DNA from: Candidatus Kaiserbacteria bacterium
GTDB taxonomy: Bacteria; Patescibacteriota; Minisyncoccia; Phycocordibacterales; UBA2100
Assembly: GCA_019247335.1 (NCBI GenBank)
Contig: JAFAPB010000070.1
Location: 1-50,805 of the forward strand
DNA length: 50,805 nt
Reading direction: 5' to 3'
The notes beneath the pieces are model-generated. The model did not search any database. It was not told the DNA's origin and was given only the letters and a program-made list of their open reading frames with translations. A program made the translations under genes and the position numbers. Numbering within the stretch: position 1 is the stretch's first letter; every line of letters begins with the position of its first letter. Positions 3,671-28,851 of the stretch are shown here, one piece after another.

Positions 3671-4936
3671 CTATTTCGCGGTCGAGAGAAGCGCGGCGGC
3701 GCTCCAGGCCTGGATGCGGCACGCGCCGCCGGAGCCGTTCTCATGCTTGTACTCGCGAAATCTCCCGCGCGTGAATCCAAAAAGCTCGATCGGCGTCGCA
3801 TAGTGCTGATAGGCGCGCCGAAGTGCTTCGCGCAGGCGCTCTCCATCGGCGGCGTATCCGAAATTATCCAGTCCCGCCGCGACGATCGCAGTGTCGTGCG
3901 GCCAGATCGAGCCGTTGTGATAACTGACGGGATCGAAGCGCGACGAGCGCGAGGAGAGCGTACGGATGCCCGCGTGCGGCACGAAAAGGTCGCGCGCCAT
4001 GAGGCGCTCAGCGATCACGGGAATATACTTCTCGTCGAGCACGCTCTCATGCTTGCCGCCCGCGCCGCGCCAGGTCGCCCACAAGACGTGGCCCATCGAA
4101 GAGCGCGGTGAGACGAGCGGCTTTCCCTCGCCATCGATCGCGAAGGCGAGCGAGGGGCCCTTGCCGCGCTTCACGACGAAACGGCTGTTGAAGACATCCT
4201 TGATTGCGAAAGCCCGCTCGGCAAGGGTAGAGGCGAGCATGTGATCCCGCGGCGCGAAGTAATCGCTCCATGCGCGAAGCGCGGCAAAGGCGTACGCTTG
4301 CGCTTCAAGCGGCGCGATCGGGTAAAGAGGTCGCACATCGCTTTCCTCGAAGAAAACAGATTCCACGCTATCCATCCAGCTCTGCGTCTTGAGGCCCCCG
4401 TGCTTTCGGTCGGGGTGGAAGGTGTAATCGATAAGCCCGTCGCCATTGGCGTCGCCGCGGTCGAGAATCCATTGCAGCGCCGCATAGATGGAGGGCATAA
4501 GCGACTCAATGACCTCGTCCTTGCCGCTTGCACGCCAGTATTCGTAGACGGTCAAGAGGTAGAGCGGCGTCGCGTCGACCGTATCGTAATTGCGCATCAC
4601 ATTGTCGGGGTAGAGGTACCAGGGCGTATGCGAGAGGGCAGTCAGGTGCTCGTGACCGCTCGGCCGCCACTCATGAATCATTTTGCCGGGCTCTTCGCCG
4701 CTTTCGATGTTGATCTCTTTGCCCTGCAGCAGCGCGAGGTTCCGGAGGATCTTCTCTACTAAATAAAGAAAGTAGGGATCGGAGCGTCGTTCATGAACGC
4801 GCAGGAGAAGAAGGCTCGTGATCAGAGAATCGCGGCCGAAGATGCAGCCATAAATTTCCTGCCGCGATGACGCGAGGATGCCGTGCTCCGTTTCGAGTTC
4901 CTTGATGCTCTTCAGTCCCAATTCCCAGAAATCCAT
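3671..4936 (-). CDS. Amylo-alpha-1,6-glucosidase / glycogen-debranching-enzyme C-terminal-domain (GDE_C) family protein
   Basis: 421 aa. Family-like segments: GILASSRQEIYGCIFGRDSLIT, DATPLYLLTVYEYW, EAQAYAFAALRAW, YHNGSIWPHDTAIVAAGL. Confidence 0.8.
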   Translation of the reverse strand: MDFWELGLKSIKELETEHGILASSRQEIYGCIFGRDSLITSLLLLRVHERRSDPYFLYLVEKILRNLALLQGKEINIESGEEPGKMIHEWRPSGHEHLTALSHTPWYLYPDNVMRNYDTVDATPLYLLTVYEYWRASGKDEVIESLMPSIYAALQWILDRGDANGDGLIDYTFHPDRKHGGLKTQSWMDSVESVFFEESDVRPLYPIAPLEAQAYAFAALRAWSDYFAPRDHMLASTLAERAFAIKDVFNSRFVVKRGKGPSLAFAIDGEGKPLVSPRSSMGHVLWATWRGAGGKHESVLDEKYIPVIAERLMARDLFVPHAGIRTLSSRSSRFDPVSYHNGSIWPHDTAIVAAGLDNFGYAADGERLREALRRAYQHYATPIELFGFTRGRFREYKHENGSGGACRIQAWSAAALLSTAK

Positions 4937-9247: not shown

Positions 9248-9315
9248 TCTCAACTAGAATGCGCGCACCGGGCATGCGTCGGAATTGGCCTGAACGATGA
9301 CGTTCAAATTATTGT

Positions 9316-9397
9316 GGGCGTGTGGCGGAATTGGTATACGCGTACGTCTCAGAAGCGTATCCCGCAAGGGTTGGGAGTTCGAGTCTCCCCACGCCCA
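9316..9397 (+). tRNA. tRNA-Leu (anticodon CAG), type II with long variable arm, no encoded CCA
   Basis: Acceptor GGGCGTG/CACGCCC, 3-bp D stem GCG/CGC, anticodon stem TACGT/GCGTA with loop CTCAGAA, variable arm TCCCGCAAGGGTT, T arm GGGAG-TTCGAGT-CTCCC. Confidence 0.9.
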
Positions 9398-9413
9398 CAA
9401 TGCTTTGAACTGG

Positions 9414-9471
9414 GCGTACGTCTCAGAAGTGTATCCAGCAAGGGTTGGGAGTTCGAGTCTCCCCATGCCCA
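9414..9471 (+). pseudogene. Truncated tandem copy of the 3' ~58 nt of tRNA-Leu(CAG), lacking the 5' acceptor strand and D arm
   Basis: 9414..9471 aligns without gaps to 9340..9397 with 3 mismatches. It runs from the D-stem 3' strand through the anticodon, variable and T arms to the discriminator base. Confidence 0.7.
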
Positions 9472-9493
9472 CTGTTTGAGCGATAATACACAT

Positions 9494-10546
9494 ATGATCA
9501 AGAGAGAGGTTTCGCTCGTCCTTGCCGCATCGGTACTCTTCGCGATGCTTATTGTCTGCGTCGCGCTCATCTCGTCGGCATTTCGCGATCTCTCTGCAGA
9601 ATCCGCTGCACCGCCCGAAGCCGGAACAGTCGCGGTCTATTTGAACAATCAGGAATACGCGCGCGAGAGCGACACGCTCGCGCGGCTCGTCAACGATCAG
9701 GGCGCTACGGCGGCGCTCGAGCGGCTTAAAAAGGACATGAGCGATCCGAAAGTTGCTGCATCGTGCCATTCGCTCGCGCACGGCATCGGTCACGCGGCGT
9801 TCGAGAAGTACAAAGATTTCGGTACCGCGATGCAGTATCAGGACGACGTCTGCGGCGCCGGCTATTTGCATGGTGTGATCGAGCGGGTCTTTAAGAGTTC
9901 GACCGATATCGACAGAGACATGGATACGATCTGCAAGCCGTATACGTCGGAAGTATTTCTGCAGAAGTGCTACCACGGCGTCGGCCACGGTCTTATGTAT
10001 TACACCGACAACGACGTGACTAAGTCGATCAGCATGTGTGGGGAATATAAGAGCAATGAATTCAAGATCGCGTGTTCAGAAGGCGTATTTATGGAAAATT
10101 TCGGCACCGATGAGAATGATCACGAGTCTGCATTTTTGAATGCCGACAATCCGTCGTTTCCGTGTACCCAGCAAAATACTTTTTACAAAGGCAGCTGCTA
10201 TTTCTACGCGCCGATCTATTACTTGCGGCTGCACGAGAATAATTATCGATCCGCCTTGAACTGGTGCGCGACGATCGAGACGCCGTTCAAACTCCGCTGC
10301 ATGACCGGCGTCGGCAGCCGGATCATGAAACAATATCTCGATAATGCGCGGGTTCCCGAAAATATGTGCGTCCGCCAGGATCGCGCTGAAACGGCTGCAT
10401 GCATCGATGGCATGATGAGCTACTACCTTCTGCAGAATAATTCTGTCGATGCGGCACTCCGTATATGCGACGATTTCTCCGGCCCGAGCCACGACGATTG
10501 CGTCTCATCCGTCGAATCGCGCCGCGCGCTTTATGAAGATCAATAA
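9494..10546 (+). CDS. Membrane-anchored Cys/His-rich repeat protein, function unknown
   Basis: I set the start at ATG 9494, 6 nt after GATAAT, because the longer ORF would read through both tRNA sequences. There is an N-terminal TM helix followed by about 7 units of ~33-40 aa, each opening with Cys (CHSLAHGIGH, CGAGYLHGV, CYHGVGHGL, CSEGVFME, CYFYAPIY, CMTGVGSR, CIDGMMSY). Confidence 0.65.
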   Translation: MIKREVSLVLAASVLFAMLIVCVALISSAFRDLSAESAAPPEAGTVAVYLNNQEYARESDTLARLVNDQGATAALERLKKDMSDPKVAASCHSLAHGIGHAAFEKYKDFGTAMQYQDDVCGAGYLHGVIERVFKSSTDIDRDMDTICKPYTSEVFLQKCYHGVGHGLMYYTDNDVTKSISMCGEYKSNEFKIACSEGVFMENFGTDENDHESAFLNADNPSFPCTQQNTFYKGSCYFYAPIYYLRLHENNYRSALNWCATIETPFKLRCMTGVGSRIMKQYLDNARVPENMCVRQDRAETAACIDGMMSYYLLQNNSVDAALRICDDFSGPSHDDCVSSVESRRALYEDQ

Positions 10547-10586: not shown

Positions 10587-11297
10587 ATGGACTTGAAGGG
10601 GTCATCGGCGGTGATAACGGGCGGAGCACGCGGGCTCGGTGCCTCGCTCGCGCGTGAGCTTGTCGAGAACGGTGGCAATGTGCTCATTTCGGACATCGAC
10701 GGGGGTGATCTGCGCTCGCTCGCCAAAGAGCTCGATATGCCGTCGTTGCACTGCAACGTGACGGATCGCGAGCAGGTGGAGGCGCTCGGTCGCTACGCGA
10801 TGGAGCGCTTCGGCCAGATCGATCTCTGGATCAACAACGCGGGCATCTGGATGCCGTACATGCCCGCGCTCGAGATCGATTTCAATAAGGCGCGTCAGCT
10901 GATCGACGTGAATTATTTCGGCACCGCCTACGGTATGCTCGAAGCGGTAAAGCATATGCAGCCGCGCGGTGCGGGCACTATTTTAAATATCCTCTCGGTG
11001 CGCTCCTTGAAAGGCAAAGCGCTCGGCGCGGCATACTCGGCAAGCAAATTCGCAGCCGAAGGATTCACGCAAGCGGTGCGCGACGAGCTCAAGGATACGG
11101 GCATTTCCGTCCTCGGCGTCTATCCGTATCGCATGAAGACGGGACTCTTCGGCGAGCACAAGCACAAGGATTACGCGCAGTCGATGGAGCCGGACGATGT
11201 CGCGAAAATAATCACCGACAATCTCATCCATCAGCGCCCCGCAGAGCACCTCGAGATCTGGAGCGCGACCGACGTACGCAAGTCATACATCGTATGA
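10587..11297 (+). CDS. Short-chain dehydrogenase/reductase (SDR) family oxidoreductase
   Basis: TGGARGLG cofactor motif, NNAG, and the catalytic YSASK motif. Confidence 0.9.
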   Translation: MDLKGSSAVITGGARGLGASLARELVENGGNVLISDIDGGDLRSLAKELDMPSLHCNVTDREQVEALGRYAMERFGQIDLWINNAGIWMPYMPALEIDFNKARQLIDVNYFGTAYGMLEAVKHMQPRGAGTILNILSVRSLKGKALGAAYSASKFAAEGFTQAVRDELKDTGISVLGVYPYRMKTGLFGEHKHKDYAQSMEPDDVAKIITDNLIHQRPAEHLEIWSATDVRKSYIV

Positions 11298-11983
11298 ACG
11301 TGATGGCGGTTCGCACCGCTCTTTTCAAAGAAGGAAATGACCTAGCCGCTTTTATCATTCGTCACATACCAAAAGTAAAAAACGGTTTCGTGATCGTCGT
11401 CTCGTCGAAGATCGCGGCGCTTGCAGAAGGCCGTACCGCTGGTGCGCACGACAAAGAGCGGCTGATCAAAAAAGAGAGTTCATGGCGCAAGAGAATATTG
11501 CCGAAATGGTGGCTCACGGTACGCGATGGCGTCGCGATCGTAAATGCCGGCATCGATGATTCGAATGCGGAAGGGAAACTCGTACTTTTGCCGAAAGACT
11601 GTTTCAAAACGGCTGCCGCGCTTCGCGCGAAGCTCAAAAGGCACTACCGCATTCGTAATCTCGGTGTGATTTTGACCGACAGTCGCGTCGCGCCGCTGCG
11701 CGCAGGCGTGACCGGCGTTGCGCTCGGTTACGCAGGATTCAAGGGTGTCCGTGATTATCGCGGCACAAAAGATTTATTCGGTCGCCGGCTTGAAGTCACG
11801 CAGACCAACGTCGCGGATTCGCTCGCGACTGCAGCCACATTACTCATGGGCGAGGAAAGCGAGCGTCAGCCGCTTGCTGTCATCGAAGATGCACCCGTCG
11901 AATTCGCGGAGCGCGTGAACCGGAAGGAAACATTGATATCGCTCAAAGACGATATCTATCGCGACCTGTTTAAGCGACGGTAG
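11294..11983 (+). CDS. Coenzyme F420-0:L-glutamate ligase (CofE)-like protein
   Basis: VVSSKIAALAEGR, NAGIDDSNAEG, and LTDSRVAPLRAGVTGVALGYAGFKGVRDYRG...VADSLATAATLLMGE match the CofE/F420-ligase family layout. Its start overlaps the SDR stop (ATGA). Confidence 0.7.
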   Translation: MNVMAVRTALFKEGNDLAAFIIRHIPKVKNGFVIVVSSKIAALAEGRTAGAHDKERLIKKESSWRKRILPKWWLTVRDGVAIVNAGIDDSNAEGKLVLLPKDCFKTAAALRAKLKRHYRIRNLGVILTDSRVAPLRAGVTGVALGYAGFKGVRDYRGTKDLFGRRLEVTQTNVADSLATAATLLMGEESERQPLAVIEDAPVEFAERVNRKETLISLKDDIYRDLFKRR

Positions 11984-12566
11984 AAACGGCGCTCGACACC
12001 CGATCGCGCACTGCCGAGCGCGCTAATTCGTAGCTGCCGAAAAGTACGCTCGTGTAGAAGAGATCGCCGAAGAGCGTGCCTTGGAGAAACGGCAAGCCTG
12101 CGACATAGCTCTGCCAGAGACCGAGGAGCGAACGGTCGTATTCGCCGAGCATCCAGACGGCGGCGTTGGTGATGAGGAAGAACTGCAGGCTGCAGAAAAT
12201 GCTCGCGAGCACGACCGTAAGCGGGCTCTTGTGATGCTTGAGCCAGAGGCCCACGAGCGCGGAGATCGCGAAGCTGACGTAGACCGCCACGATCGCGCTA
12301 TGCAGGAGCGCGAGCGGTCCGTAGAGATGGCTGAAGTCGAAGTACTGCGCGCTGAACGGATGCACATAGAGCAATAGATAATCGGAGATGAGCATTGCGG
12401 CGAGCGGGACGATAAAGGCGTAGCGCTTGTTCAGATAGACGCCGCCGAAGAGCGCCATCGCTGTGATCGGCGCGAAATTCGGCATATGCGGCACGAGGCG
12501 CATGAGTGCGAGGAGCGCGATCACGCCAAACGGAGCGGCTGCGGCAAGAAGTTTCTGCATAGGCAA
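11970..12566 (-). CDS. Small polytopic membrane protein (~6 TM; MPNFAPI motif; DUF6580-like), last gene of the B12-riboswitch operon
   Basis: 198 aa and hydrophobic throughout. Its start directly abuts the upstream stop (12567/12566). The family name is from memory of the PNFxPI motif and was not searched. Confidence 0.6.
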   Translation of the reverse strand: MPMQKLLAAAAPFGVIALLALMRLVPHMPNFAPITAMALFGGVYLNKRYAFIVPLAAMLISDYLLLYVHPFSAQYFDFSHLYGPLALLHSAIVAVYVSFAISALVGLWLKHHKSPLTVVLASIFCSLQFFLITNAAVWMLGEYDRSLLGLWQSYVAGLPFLQGTLFGDLFYTSVLFGSYELARSAVRDRVSSAVSTVA

Positions 12567-14597
12567 TTATCCTATCACGTTGATAAGCCAGCTAAAGAAG
12601 GACCTTATGAGGCCGAAGAGACCCCCGCTTCCGGCTGCCGCCGATGCTGTTTGAGTCGTTGAGGTAGCGATCGGATCGGTGTGCGGTGGCGTCTCTTTTG
12701 GCGTCTTTGGTGTGGGCTTCGGAACGAGGGGTTTGATGCTGTGCGGTTTCGGCGCCGGTGCCGTGGTCGTCGGGACTATCGTGATCACTTCTACGGGTGT
12801 TGATGTCGCGGTCGGCGGCGTTGACGTGGCGAGAACAGGCGTTGATGTCGCGACGATCGGCGTCGTCGTTGCGATCGTGATCGTGCTCGCTGCGGTCGAG
12901 CTGGCTTCGGCATAGGTCGTACTATTCGGCGCAGAATTTCCGCCGGCCGGCTGCGTGAAGGACGCGAGGAGCGAATCCCACGTCCTGCCCAACGCGCCCG
13001 GTACCGCGTATTCCGTGGCCCACACGCGGGTCGCTTGTGCACCAGAAGTATTTTCCATGCCGCCATCACTTTGCTGTCCGGCCGCAAGCGCGTCCCCGGT
13101 GCCATTGCCATTCACGTTCCAATTGCCGTCCCCGAGCGCAGCGATCGCTTGCGCTGCCCAGCTTGTCGAGAAGCTCGTCCCGTCGACGCTGAAACCGCCG
13201 TCGCTTTTTTGCTGGTTGTGCAGATAGGTCGACGCCTTATTCAGCGCGTCGCTCACTCCCGGCTGCGATCGCACCAATGAGAGCGCCTGAATGCCGGCGG
13301 AGGTCGTATCCGGATCCATCCACGAGCCGTTCGCGGCCTGCTGCGCGACGATGTATGCCGTCAGCTTTTGAATGACGGCGTCGTTTGCACTGTATCCCGC
13401 ATGCATGAGCGGGAAGAGCGCAAAGATGTCGCCGTTGACCGGCGCGCCGTTTATTTTCGTCCCGTCGAACGCGGCGACTATCGGCGCGATGTAATCTTTG
13501 TCCCCGCCGGTGTATGGGTTGATCCCGAGCGCTTCGAGCGCCATGGCGTGGCGTTCGAAGTCGGTGGGGCTCGAGAGCGCCGGAGAAGCCGATGCTATGT
13601 AGCTGTGCAGTTTCGTCTTTGCGGCTCCAGGATCGCCCGCGGCAAAAGTAAGCGCTGCCCAATCGGTGAGCCGATCATCCGCAAAGGAGCCGTCCGCATT
13701 CTGCGCGGAGGCAAGGAATTGCAGCGCTGCAGCAACGTTGAAGACCGGCTTGAAAATCCCGCCACCGCTGCCGGAACTCGCGCCGACCGGCGTCGATGAT
13801 GCGGTCGAGGTCGCGACCGATGCGTGATCGGTCACGGTGAGCGGCGTATTCGGGAAATAAAAATCTTCTTTGATGCCGACCTGGTAGGTCCCCGTCGCAT
13901 TGACCGTGAGGATGGTCTCGCCGTTCTGATCAGCGACGCCGGTTGCGAGTTCCGTGAAGGAAAAATCCGGATTCGAGGTGCCGACGCCGAGCGTGACGCC
14001 TGGAAGCGGCACGTAATTACCAGATGCGAGATCGTACGATTCTGCCGTTACAGTAAAGGGCGTGCCGGATTCGACCGTGGAGCTCGCGAGCACCGCTTTG
14101 CGCTGCGGACCGAAGAACACATAGATCACGTCGCCGTTGTTGAGCGTGGTGTGATCTGCGCCGACCTGTGGGAACGCGCCGTTCACCGCATACGTCCAGT
14201 CGAAGCAATCGGGCGTCGCGCCGGAGGGCACCGCGATGCAGTTGATAAGAAATGAGTTGAACGAGCTGAAGTAACTGAGATCCGTAATGTCGAATGCGGA
14301 ACTGCTGCTGTCGAGCGAGGAGAGGACTGCAAGGAGGCTCCGCGCCGGCACTGACACCGCGCTGCCGCCGGAGGTCGGCGTGATCGAGGCATCTGCGGAC
14401 GTCGTCGCGGGGAGATCCGCCGTGCCGCTAAAAGCAGTGTTCGAGCCGTCGCGGATCGTGAGCGTCACGGTATCCGGTGCTATCGGCGTCGATGTCGCTG
14501 CATCAGGCGTACTCGTCGCGTCATCCGCAAACGCAACGCCTGTTAAAAGGAAACAAAGAACGAGAGAACCTAGACTTACGCGCACGCCGTATTTCAT
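12567..14597 (-). CDS. Exported multidomain protein: DUF4430 (transcobalamin beta-domain-like) + beta-rich segment + prenyltransferase/terpene-cyclase-like alpha/alpha-toroid repeats + Thr/Pro-rich stalk + C-terminal hydrophobic anchor
   Basis: Signal peptide MKYGVRVSLGSLVLCFLLTGVAFA. DUF4430-type ...CFDWTYAVNGAFPQVGADHTTLNNGDVIYVFFG. Toroid-type repeats ...QNADGSF..., ...QAANGSW..., ...QKSDGGF..., ...QQSDGGM... Tail PKPHSIKPLVPKPTPKTPKETPP...LFGLIRSFFSWLINVIG. Confidence 0.7.
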   Translation of the reverse strand: MKYGVRVSLGSLVLCFLLTGVAFADDATSTPDAATSTPIAPDTVTLTIRDGSNTAFSGTADLPATTSADASITPTSGGSAVSVPARSLLAVLSSLDSSSSAFDITDLSYFSSFNSFLINCIAVPSGATPDCFDWTYAVNGAFPQVGADHTTLNNGDVIYVFFGPQRKAVLASSTVESGTPFTVTAESYDLASGNYVPLPGVTLGVGTSNPDFSFTELATGVADQNGETILTVNATGTYQVGIKEDFYFPNTPLTVTDHASVATSTASSTPVGASSGSGGGIFKPVFNVAAALQFLASAQNADGSFADDRLTDWAALTFAAGDPGAAKTKLHSYIASASPALSSPTDFERHAMALEALGINPYTGGDKDYIAPIVAAFDGTKINGAPVNGDIFALFPLMHAGYSANDAVIQKLTAYIVAQQAANGSWMDPDTTSAGIQALSLVRSQPGVSDALNKASTYLHNQQKSDGGFSVDGTSFSTSWAAQAIAALGDGNWNVNGNGTGDALAAGQQSDGGMENTSGAQATRVWATEYAVPGALGRTWDSLLASFTQPAGGNSAPNSTTYAEASSTAASTITIATTTPIVATSTPVLATSTPPTATSTPVEVITIVPTTTAPAPKPHSIKPLVPKPTPKTPKETPPHTDPIATSTTQTASAAAGSGGLFGLIRSFFSWLINVIG

Positions 14598-14612
14598 AGA
14601 ATCGCGATTACA

Positions 14613-15143
14613 TTAATAAGCTGACTCATAACGCCACTCGACGGTATCGCCCGCGCGGACCTGCGCATCCGATGCGCCGACCGTCGCGGATTTACCGTTC
14701 ACGTAGAGGAACCAATACTTGTTGCCGGTGTTCGCGAGGCCGTTGATCGACTCGACGAATGCGCCGAGACCGGCGTATTGCGATTCCGTATACGATAGGG
14801 TGCCGTTCGCTTTCAACTGCCGCATGAGATCGATGACCGTGCCCTCATGCGATGCGGTAAAACGTACGTCCGTCGATGCCGATTGAGTTGCCGCAGGAGC
14901 TTTTGCCGGTGCGGAAGGAGTGGATGACGTCGAAGCAGCGATATTCGTATGTGCCGCCTGTTGGGAAGCCTTTTTTGCGGGTACCGACGTGCGCATCGAT
15001 GTCGTGGCGGGCGCTGCGCCACTCGCGGTCTTTGATGTCGCGATGCTGACGGAAGTCGGTGCGGTGTGCGGACGCGCGAGAAAAAGCCCGCCGAACACGA
15101 CGATGATGACGAGCAGTGCTACGGGGATTAATTTTTTTGTCAT
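14613..15143 (-). CDS. Membrane-anchored DUF4430-domain protein (transcobalamin beta-domain-like), first gene after the riboswitch
   Basis: I set the start at ATG 15143 (MTKKLIPVALLVIIVVFGG...); the longer ORF covers the riboswitch. The C-terminal domain is ...GAFVESINGLANTGNKYWFLYVNGKSATVGASDAQVRAGDTVEWRY. Confidence 0.75.
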   Translation of the reverse strand: MTKKLIPVALLVIIVVFGGLFLARPHTAPTSVSIATSKTASGAAPATTSMRTSVPAKKASQQAAHTNIAASTSSTPSAPAKAPAATQSASTDVRFTASHEGTVIDLMRQLKANGTLSYTESQYAGLGAFVESINGLANTGNKYWFLYVNGKSATVGASDAQVRAGDTVEWRYESAY

Positions 15144-15147
15144 AAAA

Positions 15148-15345
15148 CGCGAAAACTCTGCCCGAAGCAGAGTTTTGACGACTATGTGTCTTACGACACG
15201 CTCTCCTGCTCGGGATAACGAATGTCGAAGACCGGACTCGTCCCCGGTTTCCCGAGGCATTACCGTTGCGGCACAGTGGGGGGATTGCACCCCAGCTTCC
15301 AATCCGCTTTTTTCTGACTTGCGGACCCGGCCCGAGGGCCGGCAA
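15148..15345 (-). promoter_or_regulatory. Cobalamin (B12) riboswitch with terminator expression platform
   Basis: The minus-strand RNA contains GGAAGCUGGGGUGCAAUCCCCCCACUGUGCCGCAACGGUAA, which matches the conserved aptamer core pattern GGGAA..GGUG.AA.CC...CCGCAAC.GUAA. Downstream are GGGAAACCGGGG, GAGUCCGG (B12-box-like), and the terminator AAAACUCUGC-UUCG-GGCAGAGUUUU-CGCGUUUU immediately before the ATG. Confidence 0.7.
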
Positions 15346-15360
15346 CAATCGTGAAAGTCG

Positions 15361-15388
15361 ATTGTACGCCGGCTGCTTTTCCATGCAA
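15361..15388 (-). promoter_or_regulatory. Putative promoter of the riboswitch operon (TTGCAT-16 nt-TACAAT on the minus strand)
   Basis: The hexamers were read on the reverse complement (plus-strand ATGCAA 15383..15388 and ATTGTA 15361..15366). Confidence 0.5.
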
Positions 15389-15467
15389 TGTGCACAGCAC
15401 GACACAAAACGATCCGGCGCTGCGGTCAATATGCACGCCCGTCCATGCGCTCATCGGATATGACATA

Positions 15468-16985
15468 ATGCAGGCGTTTATGCCGCTCCCCGAAAACAAC
15501 GTCCCGACGATCATGGCAGCCTTCGGCGCAACAGGCGACCTCATGCGTGTGAAAGTCATCCCCGCGCTCTTCCATCTCCATACGAAAGGCCAGCTGCCGA
15601 CGATGTTCCGCGTCGTCGGATTCTCGCGCCGCCCGTGGAGCGACGATGAATTTCGCGCACACGTGAAAGGCGTCGTCGATATACACACCAAAGGGCTTTT
15701 CGACGCGACGAAGATCGATTCGTTTCTCGATATATTCAGTTTCCAACGCGGCGATTTCGACGAGAAGGACAGCTACGAAGCGCTGAAAAAGACATTTGAC
15801 CGGCTCGATACCGAATGGGGCGTGTGCGCGAACAAGCTCTTTTATCTCGCGGTCGCGCCGGAATTTTATACGACTATAGCCACGCACGTCGCGCAGTCGA
15901 AGCTCTCCGAGCCATGCGCGCCCGGCGGCGGATGGACCCGCATCGTCGTCGAGAAGCCTTTCGGCGAAGATACGAAATCAGCTCGGAAGATCGACGAGCA
16001 CCTTGCGACGATATTCGACGAAAAGCAGATCTACCGCATCGATCATTATCTCGGCAAGGAAATGCTTCGCAACATTTTGATATTCCGATTCTCTAACAAT
16101 CTTTTCGAGATACCGTGGGGCAAGGAACTTATCGAGAAGATCAATATTCGTGTCGCGGAGTCGATCGGCGTCGAAAAGCGCGGACCTTTCTATGACGCGA
16201 CGGGCACCTTGCGCGACGTCGGGCAGAATCACTTGCTCCAAATAATCGCGCTTCTCACCATGGAGCGCCCGCGTACCTTCACCGATACGGCGATACGCGA
16301 GGAGCGCCGGAAAGCGCTTGAGCATATTAAAAAGCCGACGCTGCAACATATACAACGATATAGTTTCCGCGCACAGTACGAAGGATTTCGCGAAATTCCC
16401 GGTGTCGCAAAAGCGTCGAATACGGAAACATATTTTAAAGTGCGCGTTGATATCGATGCGCCGCGGTGGAAGGGCGTTCCGATCTATATGGAATGGGGGA
16501 AGCGTCTCGGCGAGGCGCAAAAGGAAATCGTGATCACCTTCAAGCATCCGCGGCCGTGCCTCTGCCCCCCGGGGAAGCATCATAAGAACGAGGTGATCAT
16601 CCGGCTCGAACCGAAGGAAGAAATTCTCATCGAATTCTGGTCGAAGAAACCCGGCTATACGCTTGAGACCGAAGCGCGCATGTTCCATTTCCTCTTTCGT
16701 GAGCGCGGCAGCACGGCGCAGTACACCGAAGAATATGAAAAAATGCTGCTCGATTGCATCGCCGGCGATCAGACGCTCTTTATTTCCACCGAAGAGATCC
16801 GTGCTATGTGGCGCTACATCGACCCGATCGTCGCGGCGTGGAAGAAAAATGCGACGCCGCTTCATTTCTATAAGCCGGATGACAAAAAAATAGTGGAGGA
16901 GGCGCGGGTCATCGAGAGCGGTGTACAAACGAGCGCGCGCGGCTATACTTCGGCCAGTCGGAAAAGGACTACAACACATGACTAA
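15468..16985 (+). CDS. zwf: Glucose-6-phosphate 1-dehydrogenase
   Basis: GATGDLMRVKVIPAL, EKPFGED, and the active-site motif RIDHYLGKE. The start is placed at ATG 15468; 15480 is also possible. The longer ORF overlaps the divergent riboswitch promoter. Confidence 0.9.
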   Translation: MQAFMPLPENNVPTIMAAFGATGDLMRVKVIPALFHLHTKGQLPTMFRVVGFSRRPWSDDEFRAHVKGVVDIHTKGLFDATKIDSFLDIFSFQRGDFDEKDSYEALKKTFDRLDTEWGVCANKLFYLAVAPEFYTTIATHVAQSKLSEPCAPGGGWTRIVVEKPFGEDTKSARKIDEHLATIFDEKQIYRIDHYLGKEMLRNILIFRFSNNLFEIPWGKELIEKINIRVAESIGVEKRGPFYDATGTLRDVGQNHLLQIIALLTMERPRTFTDTAIREERRKALEHIKKPTLQHIQRYSFRAQYEGFREIPGVAKASNTETYFKVRVDIDAPRWKGVPIYMEWGKRLGEAQKEIVITFKHPRPCLCPPGKHHKNEVIIRLEPKEEILIEFWSKKPGYTLETEARMFHFLFRERGSTAQYTEEYEKMLLDCIAGDQTLFISTEEIRAMWRYIDPIVAAWKKNATPLHFYKPDDKKIVEEARVIESGVQTSARGYTSASRKRTTTHD

Positions 16986-25333: not shown

Positions 25334-27250
25334 ATGTCAGATCACGCCCATCACGAAGGACATCACGGAGGGAAGATCCATCCCGATCATCACGACGACG
25401 ATCGACGCATCACCTATTTCGCGACGACCCACACGCGCGGGAAGCGCGAGATGTTCGGCATCCGCGCCATCGATCGCGGCAAACACGTCTACGTGATCGG
25501 CAAGACCGGTATGGGTAAATCGACCATGCTCGAGAACATGGCGATCCAGGATATCCAGAACGGCGAAGGCATCGCATTCATCGATCCGCACGGATCGACG
25601 GCGGAGAAGCTGCTCGATTTCATCCCGCAGAGCCGCATCAAAGACGTCGTCTACTTCGCGCCGTTCGACACTGACTTTCCGCTCGGCTTCAACGTCATGG
25701 AGGATGTGGGCTATGACAAGCGGCACCTCGTCGTCTCGGGCCTCATGGGCGCCTTAAAACGCATCTGGGTCGACGCGTGGTCAGCGCGTATGGAATACAT
25801 TCTGCAGAACACGCTCCTCGCCTTGCTCGAGTACCCGGATTCCACGCTTCTCGACGTCAACCGCATGCTCACCAACAAGACCTTCAGGAACGCGGTCATC
25901 GAGAAAATCACCGACCCGATCGTGAAAGCGTTTTGGGTGGAAGAGTTCGCGGGCTTCACCGATACGTACACGAGAGAGGCGACGCCGGCGATCCAAAACA
26001 AGATCGGCCAATTCACCGCGAATCCGTTGATCCGCAACATCGTGGGGCAGGCGCATTCGTCATTCGATCTGCGCAAGATCATGGACGAAAAGAAGATTTT
26101 CATCGTCAATCTCTCCAAGGGCCGGATGGGCGAGACCAATGCGAGCCTGCTCGGCTCCATGCTCACGGTGAAGATCTACCTCGCCGCTATGTCGCGCGCC
26201 GACGAGCCTGCGGCGCGCATCGCGCGGCTGCCGCGCTTCTACTTCTACGTCGACGAATTCCAGTCGATGATGAACGAGGCGTTTGCCGATATTCTCTCTG
26301 AATCGCGCAAATACAAGCTCGCGCTCACGCTCGCGAACCAATACATCGAGCAGATGGAAGAAGAGGTCCGCGATGCGGTTTTCGGCAACGTCGGCACGCT
26401 CATCGTCTTCCGCGTCGGTCCTTTTGATGCCGAAGTTCTCGAGACGGTTTTCAAGCCGACATTTTTGCCGGAGGACCTTGTCGGCTTGGGCTTGGGACAG
26501 ATCTATCTCACGCTCATGATCGACGGGGTCGGATCCGCGCCGTTTTCCGCTGAAACTATCCCTCCGATCGAAGCGCCCGCGATCTCATACCGCGACGACG
26601 TGGTCGAATCCTCACGCGCGCAGTATGGCCGCATCCGCGCCGAAGTCGAATCAGCGATCAATAGCAAGCAACTCGAATTCGTGCCGCCGCCTAAGGAGAA
26701 AAAAGAGCGGCGCGACGGGCCGCGCGGCGGTGTGCGCGATCAGGGAACGGAGCCGCGCTCGCTCCTCGCCGGCATCGTGAAGCGCGAAGAGCCGCGCCCG
26801 GCAGCACCACCCGTGCGCGAGCCGCAGCCGCAATCGCAACAGCATGCGGCCCCTCGCCGGCAGGAAGCGCCGCGCCCGAACGAAGCCGTCGCACGCAATT
26901 CGCTCAAAGAGGCGATCGAGCGAGCGCGCGCCGAGAGCGCCGGGTCTGCAGCTCCAGCCGCGCCATCAAAATCCCCGTTGGAAGTACTCCGCGATCGCCG
27001 CGAGCAAAAAGAAGCGCGCGCGGGAGGGGAGAAGCCCAACCAGAACCGAGAGCCGCGCCGGGAGGAGCCGCGCCAAGCGCAGCCGAAGCGGGAAGAATCG
27101 CGTAAAGAAGAGCCGAAGCGCGAGGAGCGCAAGGAAGAACCCCGTCCGCAGTTGAAGGAAATCCAGCAGGATCACGCGCACGCCGAGGTCTCTCACCGCA
27201 CGCTTCAAGAAGTGCTCAACGGCCACAAGCGCGACTACGACGACCTATAG
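25334..27250 (+). CDS. TraD/VirD4/HerA-like P-loop ATPase (type IV coupling-protein-like) with His-rich N-terminus and long charged C-terminal tail
   Basis: Walker A VIGKTGMGKST. FYVDEF (Walker B-like). ...LTLANQY... The N-terminus is MSDHAHHEGHHGGKIHPDHHDDD. The C-terminal ~190 aa are Arg/Glu/Lys/Pro-rich low complexity. Confidence 0.7.
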   Translation: MSDHAHHEGHHGGKIHPDHHDDDRRITYFATTHTRGKREMFGIRAIDRGKHVYVIGKTGMGKSTMLENMAIQDIQNGEGIAFIDPHGSTAEKLLDFIPQSRIKDVVYFAPFDTDFPLGFNVMEDVGYDKRHLVVSGLMGALKRIWVDAWSARMEYILQNTLLALLEYPDSTLLDVNRMLTNKTFRNAVIEKITDPIVKAFWVEEFAGFTDTYTREATPAIQNKIGQFTANPLIRNIVGQAHSSFDLRKIMDEKKIFIVNLSKGRMGETNASLLGSMLTVKIYLAAMSRADEPAARIARLPRFYFYVDEFQSMMNEAFADILSESRKYKLALTLANQYIEQMEEEVRDAVFGNVGTLIVFRVGPFDAEVLETVFKPTFLPEDLVGLGLGQIYLTLMIDGVGSAPFSAETIPPIEAPAISYRDDVVESSRAQYGRIRAEVESAINSKQLEFVPPPKEKKERRDGPRGGVRDQGTEPRSLLAGIVKREEPRPAAPPVREPQPQSQQHAAPRRQEAPRPNEAVARNSLKEAIERARAESAGSAAPAAPSKSPLEVLRDRREQKEARAGGEKPNQNREPRREEPRQAQPKREESRKEEPKREERKEEPRPQLKEIQQDHAHAEVSHRTLQEVLNGHKRDYDDL

Positions 27251-27670: not shown

Positions 27671-28851
27671 GGCTCGGTGAGCGCTCGCTGTCGCCTTTTG
27701 TAATTAGATGCGAATTCTATCGGGGAACATTATGCTCAATGCCGCCATGATCTCACCCCAATTATGAATCGGATGAATCCATTTCTCGGTAATTGCAACT
27801 TGAGCTAGCCACAATAACTTAAGTACGGCTTCGTCATGCGGGAATACGATCGTAGTTTTCGTTACTCTTCGAAATTGTCGGTTGAGATTCTCAATTGCAT
27901 TTGTGCTGTAGATCAATTTTCGTATCGCGCTGGGGTATTCGAAGAACGTGTTCAGTTCTTGCCAGCGATCCTCCCAACTCTTCAGGTAAGGTCGATACTG
28001 TGGCCATTTCCGTATCACTTCATTGAGTGCTTCGATGCCTGACTCTTCAGTTGGCGCCGCGTAAATTTCTCTCAAATCCTCACAAAACTCCTTGCGATGT
28101 TTTGTCGGAACAAACATCATAGTGTGTCGAATTTGATGAATAATACAGACTTGAATCTGAGCCAATGGGTAGATGTTCTTAATCGCTTCAGGGAATCCTT
28201 TTAGCCCATCAACGCAAACTATTAACGCGTCTTCAGTGCCACGATTCTTAATCTCATTTAGCACGCCCATCCAGAACTTAGAACTTTCCGAATCGCTAAC
28301 CCAAAAGCCGAGCAGTTCTTTTTGTCCGGTTATTGTCACGCCCATTGCCACATAAGCGACCCTGGCTGCGACTCTTCCTGCTTCCCGCACGTTGAAGCGC
28401 AAACCATCTAAGAAGATTATTGCGTACGTTGTCGGTAAGACTCGCGACTGCCACTCTTTTATTAACGGAAAGACCTTATCCGTTATTGACGATACAGACG
28501 ACGGGGAAACCTCAACGCTACGCTGTGAGCGCATGTGGTTTGAGATTTCACGGGTTGAGAGGCCTTTGGCATACAGATCAATGATAATCGCCTCATTATC
28601 ATTTGTGACAATGTCTTGCCACGCTCTTGGTAATACAATCGGCTTTTCAGCGGTCTCGGTTTTCGATGCCTCTTCCTCTTCGAGATTCTGAACAGCTACT
28701 CTCTCGCCCGCCTCTCTTTCTGCTAACGCTCGCTCTGCAGCTTCGCGGGCTTTCAGTTGACCAATAAAGTCCATATCCTCCCATCCTCTAGATATCCCAT
28801 TAGTTTTCATATGCTTATTTTGTTAATGCAACATTCGAAGCGCTCCCGGCC
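27671..28851 (-). mobile_element. IS256-family insertion sequence (boundaries approximate)
   Basis: The transposase ORF is flanked by imperfect inverted repeats: GGCTCGGTGAGCGCTCG... (27671..) versus the reverse complement GGCCGGGAGCGCTTCG... (..28851). The segment is visibly lower in GC than its flanks. I found no clear target-site duplication. Confidence 0.65.
27704..28810 (-). CDS. IS256-family (Mutator-like) DDE transposase
   Basis: 368 aa with family-typical segments: ...VCVDGLKGFPEAIKNIYPLAQIQVCIIHQIRH..., ...YSTNAIENLNRQFRRVTKT... Confidence 0.9.
   Translation of the reverse strand: MKTNGISRGWEDMDFIGQLKAREAAERALAEREAGERVAVQNLEEEEASKTETAEKPIVLPRAWQDIVTNDNEAIIIDLYAKGLSTREISNHMRSQRSVEVSPSSVSSITDKVFPLIKEWQSRVLPTTYAIIFLDGLRFNVREAGRVAARVAYVAMGVTITGQKELLGFWVSDSESSKFWMGVLNEIKNRGTEDALIVCVDGLKGFPEAIKNIYPLAQIQVCIIHQIRHTMMFVPTKHRKEFCEDLREIYAAPTEESGIEALNEVIRKWPQYRPYLKSWEDRWQELNTFFEYPSAIRKLIYSTNAIENLNRQFRRVTKTTIVFPHDEAVLKLLWLAQVAITEKWIHPIHNWGEIMAALSIMFPDRIRI

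Follow-up and report, generated by a model that had tools for sequence, protein, structure and literature searches.

Many bacteria depend on vitamin B12 (cobalamin) without making it themselves, and in many of these cases the importer of the inner membrane has yet to be identified. How might B12 be captured and imported by members of the Patescibacteria (candidate phyla radiation, CPR), which have minimal genomes and must scavenge cofactors? This question was raised by a three-gene operon on a contig from a metagenome-assembled genome (MAG) of Candidatus Kaiserbacteria (Patescibacteria/CPR), of which we analysed a stretch of 50.8 kb (50,805 nt; hereafter the window). A previous inspection of the DNA (the sequence-only reading) had proposed that a cobalamin riboswitch drives genes for transcobalamin-like exported proteins and a candidate permease. 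Independent lines of evidence now support this central reading, and we conclude, with a probability of about 0.68, that the operon encodes a B12-repressed corrinoid capture and import system. All of its features lie on the minus strand, and re-reading the sequence agreed with the positions first given, with some details corrected below. The genes are tightly packed, as had been reported: g1 (15143..14613, 176 aa) is separated by 15 nt from g2 (14597..12567, 676 aa), whose end at 12567 abuts the start of g3 at 12566 (12566..11970, 198 aa). The g3 protein, which is identical to NCBI JO019_03665, has 198 aa when read from a TTG start, while the NCBI call gives 196 aa from the ATG at 12560.

The operon leader is ~215 nt long. 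We compared it with nine leaders from related Paceibacteria-type genomes, which were fetched via the proteins and are homologous to the window leader from the promoter through the terminator. All nine share the promoter, GGAAG, a P4 hairpin, CACUGUGCCGCAACGGUAA, a variable P6 hairpin, AGUCCGGUCUUCG, the invariant block CCCGAGCAGGA, a covarying middle hairpin and a covarying terminator. The promoter (15388..15361) was read from the sequence as a -35 element TTGCAT (15388..15383), a 16-nt spacer and a -10 element TACAAT (15366..15361). A generic promoter scan listed nothing at the leader because only 8 of the 12 consensus positions match; the call rests instead on conservation, as TTGC-16 nt-TACAAT is kept at the same distance from the aptamer in the related leaders, which bears out the promoter originally proposed. 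The aptamer occupies 15353..15217, and its P1 helix is formed by 15353..15342 paired with 15228..15217. Between P1 and the junction lies a 41-nt insert with two hairpins, which the helix table shows to be common to the window and one relative (L109). After the insert follow the GGAAG junction (15300), P4 (GGGG/CCCC), the core CACUGUGCCGCAACGGUAA (15278..15260), the P6 hairpin CCUCGG-GAAA-CCGGGG and the B12 box, which is AGUCCGGUC at 15238..15230 (also given as GAGUCCGG at 15239..15232). Thus the conserved cobalamin core elements (GGAA junction, P4 hairpin, CUG..GCCGCAAC..GUAA and B12 box AGYCMGG) are all present in 15300..15230, and they are invariant across the nine related leaders, including the B12-box-like element that had been noticed previously. 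A supposed second GGGAA element had to be discarded, as it is the GAAA tetraloop of the P6 hairpin and no second junction exists.

Rfam alone would leave the riboswitch identity of this leader inconclusive. A scan of the whole window at the Rfam gathering thresholds gave no cobalamin match, and a local scan with RF00174 matched 15345..15218 with 23.8 bits against a gathering score of 31.5 (E 3.8e-4); this match covers the model from end to end, with 5 nt in place of the 66-position P6 extension. The minimum-free-energy fold of the isolated leader gave no information on the aptamer (z -1.3). When seven relatives were analysed with RNAalifold and the window was left out, compensatory changes were found in 8 of the 10 P1 pairs and 2 of the 4 P4 pairs. 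A covariance model (R1) derived from seven relatives and not from the window returned a single match in the 50.8 kb, 15314..15204 (-), with 72.1 bits (E 3.5e-21), the model being not fully independent since its seeds were located with the 19-nt core taken from the window. In addition, P1, P4 and P6 are formed by differing sequences in every leader of the helix table, window included. Across 43 R1-aligned matches, an alignment fitted to R1 and hence favourable to pairing statistics, 94.7% of the cells were paired compared to 64.9% in shuffled alignments, 20 of the 24 pairs showed changes on both sides, and the covariation score was 0.494 compared to 0.112 (0/500 shuffles as high; slid-partner controls 0.05–0.09). 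Furthermore, the homologous leaders of the relatives reach the gathering score of RF01482, RF01689 or RF00174 or come close to it. The gathering score of RF00174 is not reached by the window copy itself (23.8 vs 31.5), whereas an aptamer fold is present whose helices P1, P4, P5 and P6 are supported by covariation. Together with the sub-threshold RF00174 match and the R1 match, this covariation supports the cobalamin riboswitch first proposed, and we conclude on comparative grounds that the leader truly belongs to the cobalamin riboswitch clan and is under-scored by Rfam's general model.

Like the members of this clan, CL00101 (RF00174 Cobalamin, RF01482 AdoCbl and RF01689 AdoCbl-II), the leader has the GGAAG junction, P4, the CUGUGCCGCAACGGUAA core, the B12 box AGUCCGG, a closing P1 and a terminator platform. 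Unlike the clan models, the window copy falls below all gathering thresholds, lacks the P6 extension and carries the 41-nt two-hairpin insert, and the invariant post-P1 block CCCGAGCAGGA is peculiar to the riboswitch clade of the window.

This block (15214..15204) appears to be the 5' strand of an antiterminator. The intrinsic terminator (15176..15144) was detected by a terminator scan as a hairpin of 11 pairs, AAAACUCUGC-UUCG-GGCAGAGUUUU (15176..15152), followed by the U-rich CGCGUUUU. The hairpin and U tract of the sequence-only reading are thus present, but its 4-nt gap to the start codon is not: the hairpin ends 8 nt before the ATG of g1, and it is a second U run in CGCGUUUU that abuts the ATG. 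The terminator stem covaries among the relatives (CUCUGC/GCAGAG vs CUCCGC/GCGGAG vs CUUUCC/GGAAAG), while the CCCGAGCAGGA block, which is complementary to the terminator 5' arm plus loop, is invariant in the nine leaders. The predicted antiterminator duplex has an energy of -15.7 kcal/mol in the window and of -11.7 to -18.7 kcal/mol across all nine leaders, stronger than the terminator hairpins (-6 to -11 kcal/mol), and at most 6 of 200 shuffled blocks matched the duplex energy. In two relatives, the minimum-energy fold already shows the antiterminator. Inspection by eye for a kissing-loop partner of the CCCGAGCAGGA block gave no convincing complementarity. The platform has a classic transcriptional OFF design, and we infer that ligand binding is coupled to sequestration of CCCGAGCAGGA.

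No Shine-Dalgarno sequence precedes the ATG of g1. The window begins with the 3' portion of a 16S rRNA (1–475), whose helices are shortened and whose 3' end is GGAUUCAUUCAAAA compared to the bacterial consensus GAUCACCUCCUUU; the anti-Shine-Dalgarno CCUCC appears to be missing from this rRNA, which fits the absent Shine-Dalgarno sequence. Protein-coding open reading frames (ORFs) follow from ~715, so that no 23S rRNA gene is adjacent. On the other side of the leader, the longest zwf ORF (15351–16985, +; GTG at 15351) would reach into the riboswitch leader, to a point close downstream of the promoter on the opposite strand. The conserved glucose-6-phosphate dehydrogenase N-terminus (MQAF...GATGDL) suggests that the real zwf start lies ~117 nt further in, near 15468, which would leave the riboswitch leader free of coding sequence.

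What does the riboswitch control? The last gene of the operon, g3, had been described as a ~6-TM (transmembrane) protein with an MPNFAPI motif, and a Pfam search now assigns it to a family that had not been named before, DUF6580 (PF20221: E 7e-49, 166.6 bits vs a cut-off of 27, profile positions 9–158 of 162). Relatives of g3 are named 'DUF6580 family putative transport protein' by NCBI, and the family comprises 5,662 clusters at 50% identity (E <= 1e-3). In the AlphaFold2 (AF2) model (pLDDT, the per-residue confidence, 91.8), g3 is a six-helix membrane protein. Foldseek matched this model to BioY (probability 0.98) and to BtuM with hydroxocobalamin (8ovv; probability 0.99, TM-scores 0.59/0.65), then to RibU, ThiT and FolT, with weak E-values of 0.2–0.3 for the matches at probability 0.98–0.99 and of 0.2–3 for the S-components overall; these S-components were the only membrane-protein matches with TM-scores of 0.45–0.65. 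A comparison of DUF6580 with Pfam at E <= 5 found no second family, and searches of the PDB with g3 by phmmer and by profile (E <= 10) found no solved S-component, BtuM included. The protein is therefore tied to the S-components by fold comparison only, because the sequence and profile searches matched nothing relevant.

In an alignment of 28 DUF6580 sequences, the invariant residues R23, H27, N30 and P33, Y63, Y67 and P70, and W138, G141 and Y143 fall in loops L1, L3 and L5, and the invariant HxPNFAP motif, which includes the motif first noticed, sits in outward loop L1. By the positive-inside rule these three loops would face outward, on the substrate side of S-components. The alignment has no invariant cysteine; the sole frequent one, C125, is variable and lies in a transmembrane helix. 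Membership of two known B12 transporter families was considered and rejected: g3 is not a BtuM, as it has no invariant cysteine and no sequence similarity to BtuM, and it is not a CbrT, which was not in the top 50 structural matches. We propose that g3 is a corrinoid permease with the S-component fold. The earlier suggestion that the small membrane protein is the permease gains from this fold, with BtuM in the top two matches, and from a BtuB/BtuF-like gene context without BtuCD, described below.

The first gene, g1, encodes an N-terminal membrane anchor, a ~70-aa low-complexity linker rich in S/T/A/P and a C-terminal DUF4430 domain (aa 104–176). The match to PF14478 is above gathering (E 1.3e-17, 64.5 bits vs a cut-off of 23.8), as expected for the membrane-anchored DUF4430 protein that had been predicted. 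TCN proteins have DUF4430 as their C-terminal domain (PMC4350170). A family profile (A7) of 22 small DUF4430 proteins from DUF6580 loci retrieved the beta domains of transcobalamin and haptocorrin from the PDB, with transcobalamin-1 (4kki) at E 4.6e-6, the transcobalamin-2 beta domain (5no0) at E 1.3e-5, full transcobalamin-2 (2bb5) at E 1.2e-4 and a bacterial DUF4430 protein (3u7z) at E 1.6e-4. The view of DUF4430 as a counterpart of the transcobalamin beta domain is thus upheld, and by this homology g1 is proposed to be a membrane-proximal corrinoid binder.

The second gene, g2, encodes a signal peptide, a DUF4430-type domain (aa ~43–170) plus a second beta domain (together aa 43–256), an alpha/alpha toroid (288–543), a disordered Thr/Pro stalk (553–659) and a C-terminal transmembrane anchor (661–675). 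This architecture, which had been read from the sequence in all but the second beta domain, was recovered by Pfam, a family profile, AF2 and Foldseek. As a single sequence, g2 gave a partial match to PF14478 (E 3.5e-7, 31.0 bits vs 23.8) and weak squalene-cyclase repeats in Pfam, and no match in the PDB. Among 34 members of its family, Pfam matches were to SQHop_cyclase_C in 34, DUF4430 in 32, Cobalamin_bind (PF01122) in 15 and TED_complement (thioester domain, TED) in 15; the PF01122 matches are weak (best 4.1e-6), and the window protein itself has none at E <= 0.1. The family profile found cyclases in the PDB and no transcobalamin at E <= 1. In the AF2 model (pLDDT 79.8), the beta domains and the toroid are confident. 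Foldseek ranked single-domain cyclase-like toroids first (E 2e-7), then alpha-2-macroglobulin/complement proteins, with intrinsic factor (3kq4; E 7.3e-6, root-mean-square deviation 4.2 over 277 columns) at rank 24 and transcobalamin (2v3n; E 9.5e-6) at rank 29, both significant but behind the cyclase and TED toroids.

The claim that g2 carries both halves of transcobalamin in swapped order is therefore partly supported. Both domain kinds are present, beta before alpha, but the toroid is closest to cyclases and TED proteins and is not specifically transcobalamin-like, and the window protein lacks PF01122. The DUF4430 beta-domain fold family is shared by g1, the N-terminal region of g2 and the eukaryotic carriers (transcobalamin, intrinsic factor and haptocorrin), and g2 also has a toroid. 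Unlike transcobalamin (alpha, linker, beta), g2 places its DUF4430 domain ahead of the toroid and has an additional beta domain between the two, and unlike the soluble eukaryotic carriers, g1 and g2 are membrane-tethered. Three assignments of g2 were rejected. It is not a terpene cyclase, as DxDD is not kept: the family SVDvTA aligns to DVDDTA of squalene–hopene cyclase (SHC) and the window has DPDTT, with only the middle Asp retained. It is not a thioester TED protein, as the toroid has no cysteine. It is not a transcobalamin family member, as the profile finds cyclases and not transcobalamin, so that we keep the description 'transcobalamin-like in composition'. We propose, from its domain content, that g2 is an outer corrinoid capture protein.

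Is B12 regulation also seen at DUF6580 genes elsewhere? We examined 80 loci from species-representative genomes, picked solely by the presence of DUF6580, which is found mainly in Patescibacteria, Chloroflexota, Bacteroidota and Ignavibacteriota. At Rfam gathering, 22 of the 36 scanned loci have a cobalamin-clan riboswitch upstream of DUF6580 and co-oriented with it (28 of 36 by any method), three further scanned loci have one just below threshold, and 37 of 38 R1 matches share the strand of DUF6580. Of the 71 loci with enough sequence, 51 have a gene for a DUF4430 or toroid protein upstream in the same orientation; it is a DUF4430 ORF that ends within 400 nt in 35 loci and a toroid protein in 18. 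The order in Bacteroidota and Ignavibacteriota is riboswitch (80–110 bits), TonB-dependent receptor and DUF6580 (L073, L052, L049 and L054), and in L049 (1541–6450) a PF01902 (Diphthami_syn_2) protein and a BtuF-like Peripla_BP_2 protein stand between receptor and DUF6580, without BtuCD. In a Dehalococcoidia locus (L005, 1606–6558), a riboswitch (99.9 bits) is followed by class I NrdA, NrdB, DUF4430 and DUF6580, which would join a B12-independent reductase and a putative uptake pair in one B12-repressed unit. ATP-binding cassette (ABC) ATPase-like ORFs within 6 kb of DUF6580 were found in only 3 of the 80 loci, none adjacent or co-oriented in an operon, and the 50.8-kb window contains no energy-coupling factor (ECF), ABC or B12-enzyme genes, so the lack of BtuCDF and ECF genes noticed in the operon extends to the window, and in the 80 loci no ABC ATPase is adjacent. 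A metagenome scan with g3 was of little use, the contigs being mostly short. Judged by its genomic context, DUF6580 is a B12-regulon gene across phyla.

Some of these loci contain further genes. A Por_Secre_tail surface protein is encoded between receptor and DUF6580 in L052 (2243–7300), and a HAD-family hydrolase gene lies 3' of DUF6580 in L052 and L073 (3581–7370). At least 13 DUF6580 loci have another B12-type riboswitch, usually just downstream of DUF6580, that precedes a protein of 436–560 aa (L009:7305–8987, L037:4778–6124, L056:7194–8597, L060:7320–8744, L064:7229–8683, L068:7203–8570 and L089:6191–7606; further L038:1617–2993, L050:1535–2845 and L090:1990–3591; also L024:4657–5919 and L047:4975–6105). 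These proteins are mutually homologous and seemingly cytoplasmic, with a C-terminal GCAGGG motif followed by a CxxC...CxxC tail. They have no Pfam, NCBIfam or PDB match, and the window has no copy; the family may be a B12-regulated enzyme or a B12-handling protein. In L024, tandem B12-type aptamers (4141–4234 and 4281–4389) are followed by the 450-aa family member and then DUF6580, and a third aptamer on the opposite strand (9145–9040) precedes a DUF4430 gene.

How could the system work? When B12 is scarce, the CCCGAGCAGGA block would form the antiterminator and the operon would be transcribed; when B12 is bound to the aptamer, CCCGAGCAGGA would be withheld, the terminator would form 8 nt before the start codon and expression would stop. 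Held away from the membrane on its ~100-residue Thr/Pro stalk, g2 may capture a corrinoid with its DUF4430 domain and toroid, and the short-tethered transcobalamin-beta-like domain of g1 may take over or bind the corrinoid at the membrane. The permease g3 would then bind the corrinoid in a pocket of the conserved outward loops L1, L3 and L5 and move it through the membrane by toppling, as has been proposed for S-components. Transport would most likely proceed without a dedicated ATPase, by facilitated diffusion and intracellular trapping, as proposed for BtuM.

Several observations weigh against this capture and import system. Besides the sub-gathering Rfam score, the window-derived core in the R1 seeds, and the weak Foldseek E-values and lack of an S-component match for g3, 14 of the 36 Rfam-scanned DUF6580 loci have no gathering-level riboswitch upstream. 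Moreover, the closest g2 relatives (L101, L103, L105 and L107) have riboswitch-g1-g2 without an adjacent DUF6580, so the trio is not obligatory, and g1 is fused or dropped in some relatives; the expectation that the trio would sit behind riboswitches in relatives thus holds for the gene set, which is riboswitch-linked in several phyla, but not for these closest relatives of g2. The predicted TM-score (pTM) of the g2 model is 0.51, which leaves the domain arrangement undefined, and the g2 toroid is nearer to terpene cyclases and TED domains than to transcobalamin. The binding and transport roles are inferred from fold, conservation and gene context.

The main rival, which we hold to be unlikely, is that g3 is a conventional ECF S-component of group II, driven by ATP through a shared EcfA/A'/T module encoded elsewhere, with the same regulon and substrate. 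Group II ECF S-components are normally encoded away from their module (for the architecture of ECF transporters, see PMC6072759), and only 50.8 kb of the genome is in view, which also counts against the ATPase-independent reading; in addition, g3 has the S-component fold, with RibU, ThiT, FolT and BioY among its matches. However, no ABC ATPase or EcfT gene was found beside DUF6580 in the 80 loci, or anywhere in the window, and no conserved docking motif is visible in helix 1, because this helix is poorly conserved in the DUF6580 alignment. DUF6580 also stands behind BtuB-like receptors in Bacteroidota and Ignavibacteriota, the very context that defined the module-independent BtuM (PMC6072759). 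A different substrate, namely cobalt, the lower ligand dimethylbenzimidazole (DMB) or a precursor in place of an intact corrinoid, seems improbable to us. Cobalamin riboswitches control cobalt and precursor transporters besides B12 importers (surveyed in PMC2667541). Their targets also include CbiMNQO, CbtAB and CblT. Yet the partner domains in the operon are homologous to the transcobalamin beta domain, the diderm DUF6580 genes are paired with TonB receptors and a BtuF-like protein, which serve large ligands such as corrinoids, and the occurrence in one operon with the B12-independent NrdAB fits the scavenging of a finished cofactor.

It is less probable still that transport is not involved at all, with g1 and g2 acting as envelope proteins (in corrinoid sequestration from host or competitors, in adhesion, as an envelope enzyme or as a protease-inhibitor-like toroid) and g3 as a receptor or membrane enzyme whose fold resembles that of S-components. 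The best matches of the g2 toroid, terpene cyclases and alpha-2-macroglobulin/complement TED proteins, would suit such roles, as would the g1-g2 pair without adjacent DUF6580 in the closest relatives, and the S-component fold occurs in sensor proteins too (PMC11109136). Nevertheless, the cyclase DxDD is not kept, the toroid has no cysteine and so no thioester, DUF6580 replaces the inner-membrane permease in BtuB/BtuF-type loci, and g3 has no additional signalling domain within its 198 aa. Corrinoid capture and import thus remains our preferred reading of the operon. A broader proposal, to which we would give slightly less than even odds, is that the DUF6580 proteins are widespread ATPase-independent B12 importers with the S-component fold and a cobalt- or corrin-binding site unlike that of BtuM, partnered in monoderm-type cells with tethered transcobalamin-beta homologues.

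How does this system compare with known ones? The known inner-membrane B12 importers are BtuCDF, ECF-CbrT, BtuM and BacA (PMC6072759, PMC10960864), and DUF6580 is none of them. BtuM is a solitary S-component-like B12 transporter of Thiobacillus denitrificans (PDB 6FFV/8OVV) with an invariant cobalt-ligating cysteine in loop L3, for which toppling with facilitated diffusion and intracellular trapping was proposed (PMC6072759). Like BtuM, DUF6580 is a sequence-orphan family of ~20 kDa proteins with six helices, the S-component fold and no adjacent ATPase, and it is found in B12 loci beside btuB-type receptors in diderm bacteria. Unlike BtuM, it has no detectable sequence or profile similarity to BtuM and no counterpart of the cobalt-ligating cysteine, usually has a tethered DUF4430 binder as its partner, for which BtuM has no equivalent, and is centred on Patescibacteria, Chloroflexota, Bacteroidota and Ignavibacteriota, not on Proteobacteria. 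ECF-CbrT, the ECF-type ABC importer of vitamin B12 from Lactobacillus delbrueckii (cited in PMC10960864), shares the S-component fold of the membrane subunit, and it imports cobalamin, but it needs EcfA/A'/T and ATP, and no such genes occur near DUF6580 in the 80 loci or in the window. With BtuB-BtuFCD the system has in common the riboswitch control and, in diderms, the TonB receptor that precedes DUF6580, with a BtuF-like Peripla_BP_2 protein in L049; however, BtuC and BtuD are absent, with DUF6580 in their place, and the binder in the window is DUF4430 rather than a class III periplasmic binding protein. By analogy, the system most likely works like BtuM and resembles transcobalamin in domain content, yet belongs to neither family.

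A literature search found no prior description of a riboswitch-DUF4430-DUF6580 system and, in the library searched, no paper mentioning DUF6580. The riboswitch belongs, as a divergent member, to a known class, while the protein system combines an unstudied permease family with bacterial transcobalamin-beta-like binders. These results single out DUF6580, a large family that occurs in the Patescibacteria, as a strong candidate B12 importer, and the locus offers a specific role, open to testing, for the bacterial DUF4430 proteins, which are homologous to the beta domain of human transcobalamin. If the proposal is true, bacteria have a transcobalamin-like capture module that feeds a toppling-type permease, which would fill part of the gap in B12 uptake and suggest that the architecture of the eukaryotic B12 carriers arose in bacteria.

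Other features of the window were also recorded. Downstream of the operon, g3 overlaps a convergent CofE-like F420_ligase (PF01996) gene (11294–11983, +) by 14 nt, in line with the slight overlap reported before. An F420_ligase gene is also near the riboswitch operon in six related genomes (L101, L105, L107, L109, L111, L112, L113), while the other neighbours differ. A Mutator-family transposase gene (PF00872, E 2e-85; 27704–28810, -) lies beside a type IV secretion coupling-protein-like gene (25334–27250), which suggests a mobile element insertion. Finally, the mechanically called ORF at 9314..10546 (+) starts within a tRNA gene (9316..9397), which means that the N-terminal portion of its translation is spurious and that the true gene begins further downstream.

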